Assembly (NCBI GenBank): GCA_964496285.1
Contig: CAZBXW010000009.1
Span: 7,366 to 71,365, forward strand
Length of the DNA: 64,000 bases
DNA from: an uncultured Phycisphaera sp.
GTDB taxonomy: Bacteria; Planctomycetota; Phycisphaerae; Phycisphaerales; Phycisphaeraceae
Direction: 5' to 3'
Shown here: in pieces, positions 4,904-52,881 of the stretch
Numbering within the stretch: the first letter of the stretch is position 1
Layout of the letters: every line of letters starts with the position of its first letter
Made by a program: the position numbers and the translations under genes
Notes under the pieces: generated by a model
Databases searched by the model: none
Seen by the model: the letters and a program-made list of their open reading frames with translations, nothing else
What the model was told of the DNA's origin: nothing

Positions 4904-4971
4904 CCGCCGATGAACGCCGATGGACGCCGATATGACGAAGGCATGATTCATCGATCGGCGTCCATCGGCGG
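4904..4971. repeat. tandem-word palindromic element, C-type (CCGCCGATGRACGCCGAT words)
   Basis: The left arm ccgccgatgaacgccgatggacgccgat is the reverse complement of the right arm atcggcgtccatcggcgg. Same word set as the elements at 43208 and 46523. Confidence 0.8.
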
Positions 4972-5017
4972 TTGACCGGGCCTGAGCTTCCGTCGGTCGC
5001 AGTCAAGCGGGTATCCT

Positions 5018-6064
5018 GTGGCAACCGTTCAAACCTCCACGGGAGCACCGCTCATGGCTGTATCCGACGCGCAACAGGCCCTCGACCAGGCTCGCAAGTT
5101 CACGGAGGACTTCGCCAAGGTCCGCTCGCAAATCCAGAAGGTCATCGTCGGTCACCAGGAGATCGTCGAGGGCGTGCTGACCTGTCTCTTCGTGGGCGGT
5201 CACGCCCTGCTCGAAGGCGTCCCCGGGCTGGGCAAGACGCTGCTGATCCGTTCGCTCAGTCAGGCGCTGTCGCTGCAATTCAGCAGAATCCAATTCACCC
5301 CCGACCTGATGCCCGCGGACATCACGGGCACGACGATCGTTCTTGAAGAGCCCAATTCCGGCCGCCGCGAGTTCAAGTTCCAGCGCGGCCCGATCTTCGC
5401 CCAGATCGTGCTGGCGGACGAGATCAACCGCGCCACGCCCAAGACTCAGTCCGCCATGCTCGAAGCGATGCAGGAGCGCAGCGTCACCGTCGGCGGCGTC
5501 ACGCACCCGATGGACAAGCCCTTCTTCGTCATGGCCACTCAGAACCCCATCGAGCAGGAGGGAACCTACCCGCTGCCCGAGGCGCAGTTGGACCGTTTCT
5601 TCTTCAAGCTGCTCGTGGGCTACTCCAGCCGCGCCGAGCTGGGCGAGATTCTCAACCGCACCACCATGGCGAGCGAACCGAGCATCGAACCCGTGCTCGA
5701 CGCCCCCGGAATCCTGGCGCACCAGCAGTTGGTGCGTCGCGTCATCATCGCCCCGCACGTGCAGGACTACGCGGTGCGCTGCGTCCTGGCCACGAACCCC
5801 CAGGGCGAGTTCGCCTCCAGGTTGGCCAGGCAGTTCCTGCGTTTCGGCGCTTCGCCCCGCGCCGCCCAATCACTGGTGCTGGGCGGGAAAGTCCGGGCTC
5901 TGCTCGACGGTCGTGCCCACGTCAGCGTCGAGGACATCAAGTCGGTGCTGCTCCCGGCCATGCGCCACCGCGTGCTGCTGAACTTCGAGGGCCAGGCCGA
6001 GGCCATGACCACCGACATGATCCTCAACGACATCGCGGATTCGCTGCCGGTGGAGGCGAGCTAA
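5018..6064 (+). CDS. MoxR-family AAA+ ATPase
   Basis: Walker A GVPGLGKT, Walker B LLADEINRA, and MoxR-typical ATQNPIEQEGTYPLPEAQLDRF. Confidence 0.95.
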   Translation: MATVQTSTGAPLMAVSDAQQALDQARKFTEDFAKVRSQIQKVIVGHQEIVEGVLTCLFVGGHALLEGVPGLGKTLLIRSLSQALSLQFSRIQFTPDLMPADITGTTIVLEEPNSGRREFKFQRGPIFAQIVLADEINRATPKTQSAMLEAMQERSVTVGGVTHPMDKPFFVMATQNPIEQEGTYPLPEAQLDRFFFKLLVGYSSRAELGEILNRTTMASEPSIEPVLDAPGILAHQQLVRRVIIAPHVQDYAVRCVLATNPQGEFASRLARQFLRFGASPRAAQSLVLGGKVRALLDGRAHVSVEDIKSVLLPAMRHRVLLNFEGQAEAMTTDMILNDIADSLPVEAS

Positions 6065-6185
6065 GAATGTCGGATGTCGAGTGTCGAATGTCGGATGTTG
6101 AATCCCGGGCATGGATAGACCCTCGACCCAGCACGGATCGGACACCATGACTTCACCTCCGACCTCCGACATTCGACATCCGGCT
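6065..6185. repeat. tandem-word palindromic element, D-type (7-nt TGTCGRR words)
   Basis: Left arm gaatgtcggatgtcgagtgtcgaatgtcggatg. Right arm cctccgacctccgacattcgacatccggc is its approximate reverse complement. Confidence 0.75.
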
Positions 6186-7076
6186 TTTCTCCTGCCCCCC
6201 TCGCTCATGCGCAAGCTCGATGCGCTGGACGTGCTCTCGCGGAAGATCCTCCAGGGCAAGCTCCAGGGCGAAAGGCGCAGCAAGAAGCGTGGACAGTCGG
6301 TCGAGTTCGCGGACTATCGCTCCTACGTCGTGGGCGACGATCTGCGCCGCATCGACTGGAACCTCTACGCCCGGCTCGACAAGCTTTTCCTTCGCCTGTT
6401 CATGGAGGAAGAGGACCTGGCGGCGTCGCTGCTGCTGGACGTGTCGCGCTCGATGGACTACGGCGAGCCCCGGAAGTCGGACTACGCCAGGCAACTGGTG
6501 GCGGCGCTGGGCTACATCGCGCTGGTCAACTACAACCGGGTGAGCGTCTATTCGTTCAGCGACACGCTGCAAGGGAGATTGCCGAACCTGCGTGGGCGCA
6601 GGCCGCTGCCGCAGATGTTGCGGTTCATCGCGGAACAGACCCCGCCGCGGGAGGCGGCCCCCGGGAATCTGACGCAGACCTTACGCACCTTTGCCCTCAC
6701 GCAGCGCGGCAAAGGCGTGGTCATTCTCGTGAGCGACTTCCTCGACAAGGGCGATCTCGCCGAATCACTGAAGTATCTCGCGGGGGACCGCTTTGACGCC
6801 TACGTCGTGCAGGTGCTCGCGCCGCAGGAGGTCGACCCCGCATCCGGGGGCGTGGTGGGCGATCTGCGGCTGCGCGACCTGGAGGACGCCGACGTGGCGG
6901 AGGTGTCGGCGGGCCCGGCGTTGCTCAAGCGCTACCAGGCGAACCTGCAAGCCTGGTGCAATCATCTCAAGGAGCAGTGTCGGCGGCGCGGCGTGGCGTC
7001 CATGATCGCTCAGACCAACGTCCCGGTGGACACCGTGATCCTGCGCTATTTCCGCGAGCGTGGCCTGCTCGGTTAG
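6111..7076 (+). CDS. DUF58 (vWA-like) protein, MoxR partner
   Basis: DUF58 signature GERRSKKRGQSVEFADYRSYVVGDDLRRIDWN. The start is uncertain because the first ~25 codons lie inside the repeat; alternative ATGs at 6147 and 6207. Confidence 0.85.
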   Translation: MDRPSTQHGSDTMTSPPTSDIRHPAFLLPPSLMRKLDALDVLSRKILQGKLQGERRSKKRGQSVEFADYRSYVVGDDLRRIDWNLYARLDKLFLRLFMEEEDLAASLLLDVSRSMDYGEPRKSDYARQLVAALGYIALVNYNRVSVYSFSDTLQGRLPNLRGRRPLPQMLRFIAEQTPPREAAPGNLTQTLRTFALTQRGKGVVILVSDFLDKGDLAESLKYLAGDRFDAYVVQVLAPQEVDPASGGVVGDLRLRDLEDADVAEVSAGPALLKRYQANLQAWCNHLKEQCRRRGVASMIAQTNVPVDTVILRYFRERGLLG

Positions 7077-51083: not shown

Positions 51084-51170
51084 GTCGGACCTCCCGCTTA
51101 GCGACGCCGCGACTGTGGCGTCAGGCCACCAGTATACCTCCGCGTTCCACTTCCCTACGATAGTTCCCTG

Positions 51171-51926
51171 ATGTCGGCAGCCTCGGCGCAACCCGCGATC
51201 TGTGTCCGCAGCGTCACGCGCGTCTTCGACACCGGCGTGAGGGCGCTGGGCCCGATCGATCTGGAGGTGGCGCGGGGCGAGTTCCTGGCGCTGCTGGGGC
51301 CCTCGGGCTGCGGCAAGAGCACCCTGCTGCGCCTGATCGCGGGGCTGGATCAGCCCTCCACGGGTGAGGTTCATGTTCCGGGCGGGCGAGACAAGGTGGC
51401 CTACGTCTTTCAGGACCCGCACCTGATGCCCTGGCGCACGGTGCTGCGGAACGTGGCGTTGCCGCTGGAGCTGCGCGGGCAAAGACCAGACGCGGCGATG
51501 CACGCCATCGAGCAGGTGGGGCTGGCCGAGGCGGCCCACCGCTACCCGGCGCAGCTCTCCGGGGGCATGCGCATGCGCGTGAGCCTGGCGCGGGCGCTGG
51601 TGACGCAGCCGGACCTGCTGCTGATGGACGAGCCCTTCGCGGCGTTGGACGAGATCACCCGCAACGCGCTGGACGAGCGACTGCTGGCGCTGTGGAGTCA
51701 GCATCGCATGACCGTGGTGTTCGTGACCCACTCGGTGGGCGAGGCGGCTTTTCTGGCGCAGCGGGCGGCGGTGATGTCGCCTCGGCCGGGGCGGATCGTC
51801 GGGGAGCGGGGCATCGCGCTGTCCCCGGAGCGCGACGCGGCGCTGCGCACCGAAGACCCGCGCTTCGTCCGCGCCTGCAGCGAACTGGTGACGCTCCTGC
51901 GCCAATCGACGGAGGCCGCGGCGTGA
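51171..51926 (+). CDS. ABC transporter ATP-binding protein (nitrate/sulfonate/taurine-type)
   Basis: Walker [10 protein letters not shown], signature LSGGMRMRV, Walker B LLLMDEPF. Confidence 0.9.
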
Positions 51927-52699
51927 GGCGACTGCTCCGCGTGATCATCCCGCCGACGTTGACGCTGCTCGTGGCGCTGGCGTTGTGGGAAGCGGCGGTG
52001 CGCGTCTTCGACGTGCCGGTGTTCCTGCTGCCCGCGCCCAAGGGCGTCATCACCGCGGCGGTCACCCACGCGGAGAAACTGCTGCGTGCGGCCCTGCTCA
52101 CGGGATCGGCGGCGCTGGCGGGACTGGCGCTGAGCGCCGTGGTGGGCGTGAGCGTGGCGGTGCTGATCGCCGGTTCACGCTGGGTCGAGCGATCCGTCTA
52201 TCCCTTCACGGTGTTTCTGCAGACGGTCCCGCTGGTGGCGGTGGCGCCGCTGCTGGTGGTCTGGTCGGGCAACGGCCTGCGCTCGGTGACCCTGAGCGCC
52301 TTTATCGTCTCGCTCTTCCCGGTGATCGCCAACACGGTGTCGGGGCTGCGCTCGGTGGACCCGGCGCTGCTGGACCTGTTTCGGTTGTACCGCGCCGGGC
52401 CGATGGCCAGGCTGTTCAAACTCGGTCTGCCCTGGTCGCTGCCGAGTCTGTTCACCGGGCTCCGCGTGGCGGGGGGCCTGTCGGTGATCGGGGCGCTGGT
52501 GGGCGAGTTCGTGGCGGGATTCGCCGGCGACGACGCGAGCCTGGGCATCGTCGTCATGACCTGCATGCGCGAGTTCAAGACCGACCTGATGTTCGCCGCC
52601 ATCGCCCTGGCGTCGCTGCTGGGTCTGGCCATCTTCGCCCTGGTCAATCTCCTGGCCTACCTGCTCCTGCGCCGCTGGCACGCCTCGGCTCAGGGGTGA
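51923..52699 (+). CDS. ABC transporter permease (BPD_transp_1, SsuC/TauC-like)
   Basis: GTG 51923 overlaps the ATPase stop (GTGA). Six TM helices. EAA-like loop LFRLYRAGPMARLFKLGLP. Confidence 0.85.
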   Translation: MRRLLRVIIPPTLTLLVALALWEAAVRVFDVPVFLLPAPKGVITAAVTHAEKLLRAALLTGSAALAGLALSAVVGVSVAVLIAGSRWVERSVYPFTVFLQTVPLVAVAPLLVVWSGNGLRSVTLSAFIVSLFPVIANTVSGLRSVDPALLDLFRLYRAGPMARLFKLGLPWSLPSLFTGLRVAGGLSVIGALVGEFVAGFAGDDASLGIVVMTCMREFKTDLMFAAIALASLLGLAIFALVNLLAYLLLRRWHASAQG

Positions 52700-52708
52700 A
52701 AGCAATAC

Positions 52709-52881
52709 ATCCGCGGATGACGCAGACGACACCGATCTGATGCGAAAAAAATGAACTCGGATAGGTCGTGTGGGTCGGATGAATCCCGAGTCCGCTGATT
52801 CTTCTCATGCTTATTCGATCGATCCGATCCATCCGAGTTAATATGGTCGGAGTCTGTGTCATCTGTGTAATCTTCGGATCC
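52709..52881. repeat. tandem-word palindromic element, B-type (degenerate)
   Basis: atccgcggatgacgcagacgac ... gtctgtgtcatctgtgtaatcttcggatcc. Inner pair aactcggataggtcg / cgatccatccgagtt. Confidence 0.75.

Follow-up and report, generated by a model that had tools for sequence, protein, structure and literature searches.

Intergenic palindromes with tandem-word arms in a Phycisphaerae-like genome: candidate gene-less partners of GxxExxY nuclease cassettes

The REP and REPIN sequences of Proteobacteria, together with their partner enzyme RAYT (TnpA-REP), resemble the palindromes described here in being high-copy and extragenic, in lying after stop codons, in operons and between convergent genes, and in having several families per genome. 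The likeness extends to the partner gene, which is itself flanked by inverted repeats, with gene-less copies vastly commoner. RAYT is an HUH Y1 transposase, however, whereas the cassettes discussed below carry a PD-(D/E)XK protein of ~125 aa. REP sequences vary between lineages, but the palindrome words found here are shared across phyla, an archaeon and viral contigs. REPs are single imperfect palindromes of 20-40 bp with an unpaired GTAG or CGTC tag (PMC3733652), while the elements in the 64-kb stretch of DNA analysed here (the window) are built of tandem words and have neither tag.

The window elements are like MITEs in their small size (68-180 bp), lack of coding capacity and inverted-repeat boundaries, in having a gene-bearing counterpart that shares their ends (the GxxExxY cassettes), and in that whole copies, interior included, are duplicated in some genomes (L037, L126). 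They differ in their ends, which are arrays of 2-5 words and not a single terminal inverted repeat, and in the gene of the long form, GxxExxY, which does not belong to the recognised transposases. Target-site duplications were not seen at the elements, and the loops are wholly unlike each other between copies within the window, unlike recent MITE copies. The cyanobacterial STRRs are intergenic tandem 7-bp words that form hairpins with complementary arrays, and D1 and E1 fit them best. However, STRR words (CCCCAGT and others) are unlike those of the window, the A-C words are 8-10 nt long, STRRs have been described only in filamentous cyanobacteria, and no report links them with a nuclease partner or with modular two-stem families. 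An STRR hairpin lies between hupS and hupL, and a role in transcript stability or termination was proposed (PMC2670836).

Free-standing homing endonuclease genes offer another parallel: a small nuclease gene in the middle of a symmetric target, which it splits. They include PD-(D/E)XK types such as I-Ssp6803I and I-Bth0305I. The target of a cassette would be an abundant intergenic repeat and not a conserved gene, however, and the GxxExxY ORF frequently starts within the repeat arm. In the comparison with these genes, a mixed-clade family phylogeny with multiple transfers (PMC3424549) was counted as a likeness. Intrinsic (Rho-independent) terminators are likewise G+C-containing hairpins shortly after stop codons, but the window elements have no U-tract, their stems are 2-4 times longer than those of typical terminators, and in low-G+C genomes flanking runs, of T on the 5' side and of A on the 3' side, lengthen the A-type stem, a polarity opposite to that of a terminator. 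Neisseria DUS are short conserved words, often arranged in inverted pairs which also serve as terminator-like hairpins behind genes; pneumococcal BOX elements are modular with an internal module in variable number, and Correia elements form hairpins that RNase III can process. Unlike the window elements, DUS have one 10-12-nt word per arm and BOX modules are 45-59 bp long, and to our knowledge DUS, Correia and BOX are each limited to one genus or family and none has a PD-(D/E)XK gene.

A preliminary description of the window had listed at least 11 palindromic elements with tandem-array arms, at 11 stated positions. All were present as described, every one of them intergenic (11/11) and with a strong folding z-score (Table 1). 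They lead the whole-window ranking of an inverted-repeat search (arms at most 200 nt apart) as hits I1-I9, I11-I14, I16, I17 and I19, with arms of 17-39 nt and 73-100% complementarity. Tandem Repeats Finder resolved the arms into arrays of 2.0-5.6 copies with a period of 7-10. Minimum free energies ranged from -39 to -90 kcal/mol (z = -4.0 to -11.0 against dinucleotide shuffles) and stability was nearly equal on both strands. A strict detector, which demands that an exact 6-mer recur at a spacing of 7-11 nt and that its reverse complement likewise be repeated within 300 nt, picked up 6 elements in the window, whereas a shuffle yielded 0.05 on average. Beyond the 11 elements no word arrays were found in the window. 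Their summed length is 1360 nt (2.1% of the window) and their G+C content is 45-62% against ~65% for the window; low G+C relative to the host genome was counted as a sign of insertion.

Table 1. Palindromic elements of the window, with tandem arrays listed by period
Feature	Type	Position	Strand	Inverted-repeat hits	Tandem arrays	z	Arms and words	Surroundings
C1	C-type hairpin	4904..4971	.	I12, I17	period 10	-4.5	left arm (CGCCGATGRA)x2.7	canonical terminator (~4850-4895) precedes; MoxR start 84 nt downstream
D1	D-type hairpin	6066..6187	.	I2, I19	period 7	-5.6	heptamer words (GTCGRRT), x5.6 left, x3.6 right	within MoxR-DUF58 operon; starts 1 nt past MoxR stop codon
B1	two-stem B-type	9208..9355	.	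I9	period 9, three arrays	-10.8	outer 9208-9228 + 9335-9355, CCGCAGATGAC words; inner ~9237-9263 + 9286-9311, CTCGGATGG words	between convergent genes for a DUF748 protein and a CheW-response-regulator protein; stop codon of the latter abuts right arm
E1	E-type hairpin	20832..20908	.	I13	period 7	-4.0	heptamer words GGTCTAA / CTTAGAC	between GroEL paralogue and DnaJ; ends 6 nt ahead of DnaJ start codon
A1	A-type hairpin	27707..27802	.	I4 (28 nt, 93%)		-7.9	GACAGGATC ACAGGACGC GCAGGATTG GCAGGAT	between convergent SOUL-domain and M29 peptidase genes; stop codons 19 and 35 nt away
A2	A-type hairpin	41329..41439	.	I1 (39 nt, 92%)	period 9, 4.1 copies	-11.0	four words per arm	18 nt downstream of csrA stop (41457-41810, minus strand; PF02599); ~100 nt upstream of phosphofructokinase gene
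C2	C-type hairpin	43206..43282	.	I6 (25 nt, 88%)	tandem array	-5.6		between two minus-strand genes, 25 nt past upstream stop codon
B2	two-stem B-type	45453..45632	.	I5, I11, I14, I16	tandem arrays	-6.6	outer 45453-45472 + 45603-45632; inner 45486-45510 + 45555-45579	first bases (TGATCCGCAG) overlap upstream gene's TGA stop codon; lpxI start 20 nt past end
C3	C-type hairpin	46523..46595	.	I8 (23 nt, 91%)	period 10	-6.4		14 nt past lpxI stop codon
BA	composite	49738..49897	.	I3	period 8	-6.4	B-type outer ~49738-49760 + 49871-49897; A-type inner hairpin 49769-49802 + 49825-49858	between minus-strand genes; right end (GGATCAC) overlaps upstream stop codon
B3	two-stem B-type	52709..52881	.	I7	tandem arrays	-4.0	outer ~52709-52735 + 52853-52881; inner 52751-52780 + 52813-52842	ABC transporter operon, between permease and NMT1-type binding protein; 10 nt past stop codon, 18 nt ahead of next start codon
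Arrays	Tandem Repeats Finder	4905-4931, 43256-43277, 46526-46552			period 10
Arrays	Tandem Repeats Finder	9213-9230, 9237-9263, 9286-9311, 41335-41370, 45485-45511, 45555-45578, 45603-45628, 52816-52836, 52853-52873			period 9
Arrays	Tandem Repeats Finder	49783-49799, 49826-49844			period 8
Arrays	Tandem Repeats Finder	6065-6103, 6158-6182, 20887-20908			period 7

Family alignment defined two-stem families with conserved spacers, and B1, B2 and B3 belong to a single one. The number of word copies is unequal between the two arms of an element. Types A-C share one polarity (5' ...GAT words, loop, ATC... words); types D and E are heptamer arrays. The GAT core once ascribed to most words is found in types A-D and is missing from type E. 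The proposed spacing of about one helical turn was not supported: word periods span 7 to 10 nt, and fixed helical phasing is therefore not common to all types. In A1, and likewise in A2, the two arms of the element mirror each other word by word, down to idiosyncratic variants. Across 42 A-type arm pairs, 69 double-change cells were counted against 42.7 +/- 4.7 in shuffled pairs, a value reached in 0/500 shuffles. About one third of the linker positions of A-type arms are unpaired and the word cores are kept even there. The words are thus conserved beyond the need for pairing, which a pure hairpin model leaves unexplained.

The elements lie after genes and inside operons, as reported earlier, and some also lie between convergent genes. 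In nine of the 11, the start lies 0-35 nt past a stop codon; C1 and E1 are each found behind a separate terminator-like hairpin, and no element (0/11) occupies a divergent gap of the window. In fetched loci with crude gene calls there was no clear signal of depletion from divergent gaps. The density of hairpin starts 0-15 nt past the stop codons of long ORFs was 4-8 times that at 40-200 nt. The orthologous MoxR-DUF58 junction measures only 14-30 nt and has no hairpin in four relatives, and D1 is therefore an insertion.

The words are not private to this Phycisphaerae-like genome: other phyla, an archaeon and viral contigs have them too. Among the matches listed from species-representative genomes, the A-type word TTGACAGGATNACAGGAT was found in at least 120 genome stretches from ~15 phyla, including Methanoperedens, with a host G+C of 26 to 72%. 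In IMG/VR, at least 120 stretches of viral contigs contained the B-outer word CCGCAGATKACRCAGAT, several times per contig; in one such contig (L147) the copies lie 5-16 nt after stop codons. One composite A-type element is shared by L037 and L126 down to its loop, with flanks that differ, and this sharing of a whole element was counted as a sign of duplication. One-armed arrays and head-to-tail module arrays were seen in L138, L258 and L262. Elsewhere, the D/E heptamer words occur as plain microsatellite-like arrays. The earlier view of a MITE/REP-like, modular, structured and non-coding palindrome family is supported. None of the elements matched a curated RNA family (Rfam, even at E <= 5), and our literature search found no paper describing it.

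A Pfam scan of the 50 window ORFs found no transposase (0/50), in agreement with the preliminary description. The search for a mobilising enzyme proposed there did yield a candidate, though not a RAYT or an IS200-like transposase. The candidate is GxxExxY (TIGR04256/PF13366), a protein of ~125 aa with a predicted PD-(D/E)XK nuclease fold, to which the Pfam authors assign no function. Its structure model matched only generic PD-(D/E)XK cores (TM ~0.55), with a weak match to I-Bth0305I (E = 0.13). Inverted arms with A/B/C-kind words flank 67 of 80 metagenomic GxxExxY genes, picked by protein similarity alone, against 5 of 113 control ORFs, where flanked means at least three words of correct polarity on each side of the ORF. 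Among loci not chosen for it, GxxExxY was the sole recurrent cargo between distant arms. In a Phycisphaeraceae relative, the gene lies between DUF58 and BatA and its arms (GGAACAGTGATGAACGCTGATAAACGCTGAT and ATCAGCGTTTATCAGCGTTCATCACTGTTCC) are perfectly complementary. An ATG inside the left arm can start the ORF in 21/42 clear cassettes, which suggests that arm and gene form one unit. Gene-less hairpins are far commoner, with ~10 of 182 bearing GxxExxY, and weak C-terminal remnants of the gene were detected in two gene-less hairpins outside the window. Word type follows protein clade only loosely (57.0 vs 53.4% identity), which could come from shared ancestry.

No GxxExxY gene or remnant was found within the 64-kb window. 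The nine elements of types A, B and C agree in words, polarity and termini with the arms that enclose GxxExxY in many bacteria and metagenomes. The C-type arms of C1 (left arm) and C3 can be aligned with cassette 5' arms column by column, and a mini-ORF in C1 (MNADGRRYDEG..) is similar to a cassette N-terminus (MDADERRYKE). On balance, the A-C elements are probably gene-less, non-autonomous partners of GxxExxY cassettes, with insertion sites close behind genes. Types D and E have the same architecture, but their words were not found flanking GxxExxY.

A different and rather unlikely account is that the hairpins are selected RNA elements at gene ends, acting as terminators without U-tracts, 3' stabilisers or RNase III processing sites, and that GxxExxY is a secondary, homing-type selfish gene inserted in the loop of a hairpin already present, splitting its own palindromic target. 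Placement close behind stop codons, within operons and between convergent genes would follow from this, as would the elements after genes in viral contigs, the co-varying arms, the excess of gene-less hairpins and the extreme stability of both strands, as needed by a hairpin between convergent genes; insertion in the middle of a palindromic target is also the usual logic of homing endonuclease genes. Yet no U-tract follows any of the 11 elements, and the genome has canonical terminators (e.g. 4850-4895), with C1 and E1 behind such hairpins. The role of RNA stabiliser or attenuator suggested earlier is plausible by position, but besides the missing 3' U-tract the sense strand is no stabler than the antisense strand (34 vs 48, p = 0.33). 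Structure alone does not need identical words across phyla and G+C contents, the start of many cassette ORFs within the arm suggests a single unit, and the MoxR-DUF58 junction does without the hairpin in four relatives. The arrays might instead act as double-stranded DNA, offering periodic sites to a DNA-binding protein. This could be nucleoid-associated, a repressor or centromere protein of the ribbon-helix-helix type, or a receptor for uptake signals like the paired DUS of Neisseria, and the inversion would be incidental or serve dimer symmetry. We consider this reading improbable. The cores conserved where linkers do not pair, the one-armed and head-to-tail arrays and the absent strand asymmetry speak for it; ribbon-helix-helix proteins typically use tandem operator words of 7-9 bp, and paired DUS fold into hairpins resembling terminators. 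However, periods differ between families (7 to 10 nt), arm covariation is significant, independent arrays have no need of arms that mirror each other down to the idiosyncratic variants of A1 and A2, and we know of no universal candidate binding protein across bacteria, archaea and viruses.

Neutral replication slippage with local inverted duplication, giving simple-sequence repeats without function or mobility, would fit the microsatellite-like D/E arrays elsewhere and the differing copy number between arms of one element. It is very improbable as a general explanation, with a chance expectation of ~0.05 per window, and for types A-C it is largely refuted by the same 8-10-nt words and termini in unrelated phyla (26-72% G+C among the matches listed), the defined two-stem families with conserved spacers and the tight, specific association with one gene family (GxxExxY). 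Least probable of all is a role of the A-type arrays as decoys that bind CsrA or as autoregulatory sites. The A-type word UACAGGAUG agrees with the core of the SELEX consensus published for CsrA (RUACARGGAUGU), and A2, with four GGA words in each arm, lies in the csrA 3' UTR, starting 18 nt past the stop codon. But csrA is close to only one of the three A-type copies, GGA is absent from B-outer and C words, and a 39-bp stem hides the GGA motifs, while CsrA binds GGA in loops or single strands. A-type hairpins are also present in Methanoperedens and Cytophagia genomes, groups in which we know of no CsrA.

As gene-less partners of GxxExxY cassettes, the window elements would have a relation to them like that of MITEs to insertion sequences or of REPINs to RAYT genes, and may have arisen by loss of the ORF or be mobilised in trans. 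They would have spread into intergenic DNA directly 3' of stop codons, a site of little harm. Once transcribed, an element would form a very stable hairpin of 20-40 bp, which may stop 3' exonucleases or serve as an RNase III cleavage site, so that the flanking cistrons would be separated or stabilised. Our literature search found no description of such a system. The sequence comparisons suggest that GxxExxY genes and their arms are a selfish nuclease-plus-palindrome system.

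All eleven palindromic elements named in the preliminary description are real: their sites supply nearly all of the strongest inverted repeats of the window (arms at most 200 nt apart), with arms of 17-39 nt that are 73-100% complementary. That the arms are tandem arrays was independently found by Tandem Repeats Finder (period 7, 8, 9 or 10, with 2.0-5.6 copies for each arm), and the proposed hairpins fold at -39 to -90 kcal/mol (z = -4.0 to -11.0 against dinucleotide shuffles), about equally on both strands. A strict detector (word array plus reverse array) found 6 elements in the window versus 0.05 per shuffle, and outside the 11 elements the window contains no further word arrays. 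The elements are 68-180 bp long, non-coding and bounded by terminal inverted repeats. They account for 2.1% of the window bases and occupy 11 of roughly 55 gene junctions. Their G+C content is below that of the host; the window has about 65%.

The intergenic position previously described was confirmed in 11/11, and 9/11 lie within 35 nt of a stop codon. The terminal bases of B1, B2 and BA (B-type outer arms around an A-type inner hairpin) are abutted or overlapped by the stop codon of a flanking gene. D1 lies within the MoxR-DUF58 operon and B3 within an ABC-transporter operon, convergent gene pairs flank B1 and A1, and none of the 11 elements occupies a divergent gap. Behind long ORFs, hairpin starts are 4-8 times denser 0-15 nt past the stop codon than at greater distances. 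Gene-context statistics from loci fetched from other genomes, metagenomes and viral contigs (L-numbers below) were discarded: 32/178 hairpins fell inside called ORFs and divergent gaps were not clearly depleted, and the crude ORF calls were too unreliable.

The 50 window ORFs scanned against Pfam have housekeeping functions; among them are three GroEL paralogues, DnaJ, GrpE, LeuRS, a peptide-chain release factor and two PFK genes. As had been stated, no transposase is present among them; neither an integrase nor a RAYT (IS200-like Y1 transposase) gene was found in the same scan. The nearest relatives of the MoxR protein are Phycisphaerae proteins, the best match outside its own contig being 78% identical, and the genome collections searched contain no close relative of the source genome.

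Elements and neighbouring features of the window (first position of each element; full span for A2)
Feature	Position	Strand	Remarks
C1	4904
D1	6066
B1	9208
E1	20832
A1	27707
A2	41329-41439
C2	43206
B2	45453
C3	46523
BA	49738
B3	52709
csrA (PF02599)	41457-41810	minus	immediately upstream of the A2 hairpin
Three Cpn60/GroEL paralogues	16407-18266, 19140-20753, 31305-32960		within 17 kb, adjoining DnaJ and GrpE
Perfect 16+16-nt palindrome (ATTTAGCCCCGGGTCA / TGACCCGGGGCTAAAT)	32991-33023		within the 72 bp separating a GroEL paralogue from a phosphoglycerate mutase gene convergent with it
Canonical intrinsic terminator (G+C-rich hairpin + nine T's)	4850-4895		directly upstream of C1

The perfect palindrome behind the GroEL paralogue has no word structure and is probably a bidirectional terminator. 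The elements belong to no curated RNA family, in line with the earlier failure to recognise them: in Rfam 15 only a tRNA passes the gathering threshold, and no element matched even at E <= 5. The intrinsic terminator upstream of C1 gave weak sub-threshold Rfam matches to two Burkholderia sRNA families, which probably reflect mere terminator resemblance.

The words of types A-C are 8-10 nt long and end in GAT, while those of types D and E are heptamers. B1, B2 and B3 align as a single two-stem family, in which an outer stem of 2-3 words (GATCCGCAGATKACRCAGAT) is followed by a spacer of about 10 nt that ends in TGAACTCGG and then by the inner stem (AACTCGGATGGRTCGGAT...). In BA an A-type inner hairpin lies within a B-family outer stem; the modules can thus be combined. 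Four idiosyncratic words are common to A1 and A2, and where the two differ, the opposite arm carries the mirrored difference. No common internal sequence was found in the window: the loops of B1-B3 have no similarity to one another, and those of A1, A2 and BA and those of C1-C3 are likewise unrelated.

The words are widespread beyond the source genome. The A-type word TTGACAGGATNACAGGAT is found in at least 120 stretches of the species-representative genome collection. The matches listed come from Planctomycetota, Lentisphaerota, Kiritimatiellia, Verrucomicrobiota, Desulfobacterota, Nitrospirota, Acidobacteriota, Hydrogenedentes, Marinimicrobia, Ignavibacteria, KSB1, Spirochaetes and Cytophagia, as well as the archaeon Methanoperedens; they span 26 to 72% G+C, and in about half of them a partner arm lies at most 170 nt away. 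B-outer words matched at least 120 stretches in IMG/VR, often in several copies per viral contig, and in one locus (L147) they lie 5-16 nt past stop codons. C words form hairpins in viral contigs, B-inner words also occur there, and D and E words appear in them mainly as plain one-armed heptamer arrays. Long tandem arrays consisting purely of the E-type heptamer GGTCTAA, with up to roughly a dozen copies, occur in the unrelated viral contigs L361, L367 and L360. The fetched loci contain 74 strict word hairpins in 955 kb, with nested modules and many other words (CGCAGAG, CACAGAG, CGCCAAG, CACGAAT); the closest Phycisphaera relative is among the loci bearing such other-word hairpins. Head-to-tail units containing word arrays were also seen, of about 187 bp in L062 (48-800) and L133 (around 4866) and of 77-86 bp in L258 and L262, so word modules can build satellite-like arrays as well.

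Clustering of the ORFs near A-type matches uncovered a single recurring neighbour, of about 125 aa, identified as GxxExxY (TIGR04256, E = 2e-40; PF13366); in about 10 loci it lies between the arms or next to them. In L267 (12015-12450), a Phycisphaeraceae locus, a cassette consisting of a GxxExxY gene between perfectly complementary tandem-word arms is inserted into the conserved MoxR operon, between DUF58 and BatA; in two other relatives (L351, L352) DUF58 and BatA abut or overlap. The A and B samples were picked by the words themselves, and gene calls on the fetched loci are crude. The only sample free of that selection bias consists of metagenome loci fetched by GxxExxY alignment regardless of their flanks (585/600 matching stretches encode relatives; the best 80 were kept).

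In these best 80 of 585 loci, alignment of the upstream flank with the reverse complement of the downstream flank gave a median score of 39 versus a null mean of 21.5, a null that is itself inflated because arms of different loci have words in common. The aligned segments are visibly word arrays (CACAGAT, CGCAGAT, ACAGGAT, CACGGAT, CGCTGAT, CGCCGAT and related words). Three or more such words in the correct polarity, both sides having at least one, were found around the gene in 67/80 loci, but around only 5/113 other ORFs (90-260 aa) of these loci. Between distant arms in loci chosen without regard to the gene, GxxExxY was the only recurrent cargo. Many GxxExxY proteins are found on very short contigs (0.5-3 kb), as expected if gene and arms together are multi-copy repeats; the repeats may therefore break assemblies.

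The flanking arms were defined here as a class: at least two tandem 8-10-nt words xCxxGAT, arranged as GAT-words at the 5' side and ATC-words at the 3' side, starting (A/G)(A/G)CC(G/A)C. Compared with cassette arms, the A, B-outer and C arms of the window fit this class and the D and E arms do not. The left arms of the window C type align column for column with cassette 5' arms, and their mini-ORFs (C1, MNADGRRYDEG..; C3, MNADERG*) resemble cassette N-termini. An in-frame ATG lies within the left arm in 21/42 clear cassettes, and the words then encode the N-terminus (MNTDEHR..., MDADERRYKE...). In L279, L320, L312, L327 and 17 more metagenome loci, the left-arm words encode the start codon and the first 5-8 codons of the GxxExxY ORF; words of 10 nt place successive ATGs (and TGAs) in all three reading frames. 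B-inner-like words AACTCGGATGRATCGGATG adjoin GxxExxY in L273 and L274. In these two metagenome contigs, which are 98.6% identical, the gene lies amid repeated arrays of AACTCGGATGAATCGGATG (around 2250-2900 and 2400-3050, respectively) that are very like the window B-inner module, and a portion of the segment downstream matches copies of the repeat at two or more positions. TBLASTN and BLASTX searches found no GxxExxY ORF or remnant in the window, where all copies are gene-less; two gene-less hairpins elsewhere retain weak C-terminal GxxExxY remnants.

The GxxExxY family is large, with at least 8,000 candidates in the search, and the D...E-x-K catalytic motif is retained in its alignment. AlphaFold models the protein with high confidence (pLDDT 91.6). 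No sequence relative with a solved structure was found in the PDB, and the best matches in a fold search were only generic PD-(D/E)XK cores (TM about 0.55), including Cas4, the lambda exonuclease family, splicing endonucleases, Hjc and a homing endonuclease. Literature searches for GxxExxY, PDDEXK_3 and PF13366 retrieved only a Pfam-wide survey of PD-(D/E)XK families, which gives the function of PF13366 as unknown and reports that it occurs in prokaryotes and viruses, has been transferred multiple times and forms mixed clades (PMC3424549), a pattern that fits the distribution of the words. No paper on tandem-word palindromes around GxxExxY genes was found, with the caveat that the library searched is incomplete and an earlier description is possible; searches with the literal word sequences returned nothing.

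On balance, types A-C would be REPIN- or MITE-like elements that lack a gene, are partnered with GxxExxY cassettes and settle immediately downstream of genes, where their hairpin RNA would be expected to affect 3' ends and processing. Insertion or duplication is favoured by three findings: D1 occupies a MoxR-DUF58 junction whose length in four relatives is no more than 14-30 nt, a composite A-type element recurs together with its loop in different flanks in L037 and L126 (internal sequence is thus common to that genome pair), and the elements have a lower G+C than the host. The MITE-like character suggested in the preliminary description did not extend to target-site duplications, as the A, B and C copies in the window have no flanking direct repeats; the T-run and A-run that flank A-type copies elsewhere are complementary to each other and are not direct repeats. 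Near-identical cassettes in different flanks were absent among 88 GxxExxY genes. The sole two similar pairs have a common flank, so there is no direct evidence of recent cassette movement. Together with the unrelated loops in the window, these results count against simple MITE behaviour.

The two arms also change together. In 42 A-type arm pairs 80.7% of cells pair, and double-change cells number 69 versus 42.7 +/- 4.7 in shuffles (0/500 reach 69), while controls with the partner arm slid by 1-3 columns give a far lower covariation score. That the hairpins are host-functional RNAs into which GxxExxY genes home is unlikely. About a third of the A-type linker cells are unpaired with the word cores still conserved, and selection on RNA only was rejected since in 83 hairpins of known orientation folding energy showed no bias, the sense strand not being more stable. 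No T-run follows either arm on either strand in any of the 11 elements, unlike the intrinsic terminator upstream of C1, whose hairpin adjoins a U-tract. The unpaired linkers with conserved cores, the lack of sense-strand bias and the missing U-tract count against a purely structural reading; arrays bound by protein as double-stranded DNA are an improbable explanation, given the covariation of the arms. Neutral slippage products are very improbable overall and relevant mainly to the heptamer arrays of D and E. A CsrA decoy role for type A has hardly any probability: the A2 words (UACAGGAUG) match the core of the CsrA SELEX consensus, and csrA is adjacent, but the other two A-type copies are not near csrA and the match may be a coincidence. 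Further resemblances were dismissed. The A-type end TTGACA equals a sigma-70 -35 hexamer, with the third word sometimes reading GATAAT 18 nt on, but this is found only in some low-G+C copies and in no window copy, and promoters at the two ends would be convergent. The B ends slightly resemble a DnaA box and the 16S rRNA 3' end; each requires a mismatch and neither is general, so both are regarded as coincidence.

Going beyond the gene-less partners themselves, it is possible, though somewhat less likely than not, that GxxExxY proteins are the dedicated nucleases of a previously undescribed and very widespread class of selfish elements. Their REPIN-like progeny would be the word hairpins that abound in Planctomycetota and in many further phyla, those of the window among them. 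Each GxxExxY protein would recognise the tandem-word palindrome around its own gene, as a binding-site array or an extruded cruciform, and would then copy itself, or gene-less hairpins, into new intergenic sites. Such a system would be a PD-(D/E)XK counterpart of RAYT-REPIN.

Among known systems the functional resemblance is greatest to REP/REPIN-RAYT: the elements are high-copy (11 in 64 kb), extragenic, and located at gene 3' ends and inside operons. Yet the features that define REPs are missing. REPs are defined as imperfect palindromes of 20-40 bp in which one end bears a conserved, unpaired GTAG or CGTC tag (PMC3733652), whereas the window arms consist of 2-5 tandem words rather than a single palindrome and carry neither tag at either end; the RAYT enzyme fold also differs from the PD-(D/E)XK fold of GxxExxY. 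With MITEs the elements have in common that they are short, non-coding and bounded by terminal inverted repeats, but they lack target-site duplications and common interiors. Longer forms with the same arms that encode GxxExxY exist in other genomes (none in the window), and GxxExxY is not a proven transposase. D1 and E1 alone resemble cyanobacterial STRRs, being intergenic, hairpin-capable tandem heptanucleotides (period 7, 3.1-5.6 copies). The words of STRR1-3 differ from the window words GTCGRRT and GGTCTAA. STRRs are found in heterocystous cyanobacteria, in contrast to the Phycisphaerae-like host of D1 and E1. The function of the cyanobacterial STRR hairpins is also unknown (PMC2670836).

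If the link between words and gene holds, it would provide the functionally uncharacterised PF13366/TIGR04256 proteins, a large family, with a role and would explain repeats that form a visible share of the intergenic DNA in the window, with similar repeats in many phyla known mostly from metagenome assemblies. The words are simple markers for finding such elements, and a single purified 125-aa protein plus synthetic hairpins would allow a direct test of the idea. The hairpins of the elements are expected to influence how operon mRNA is processed, and with their protein they would form a second nuclease-plus-palindrome partnership beside RAYT-REPIN, with another enzyme fold and arms made of repeated words.
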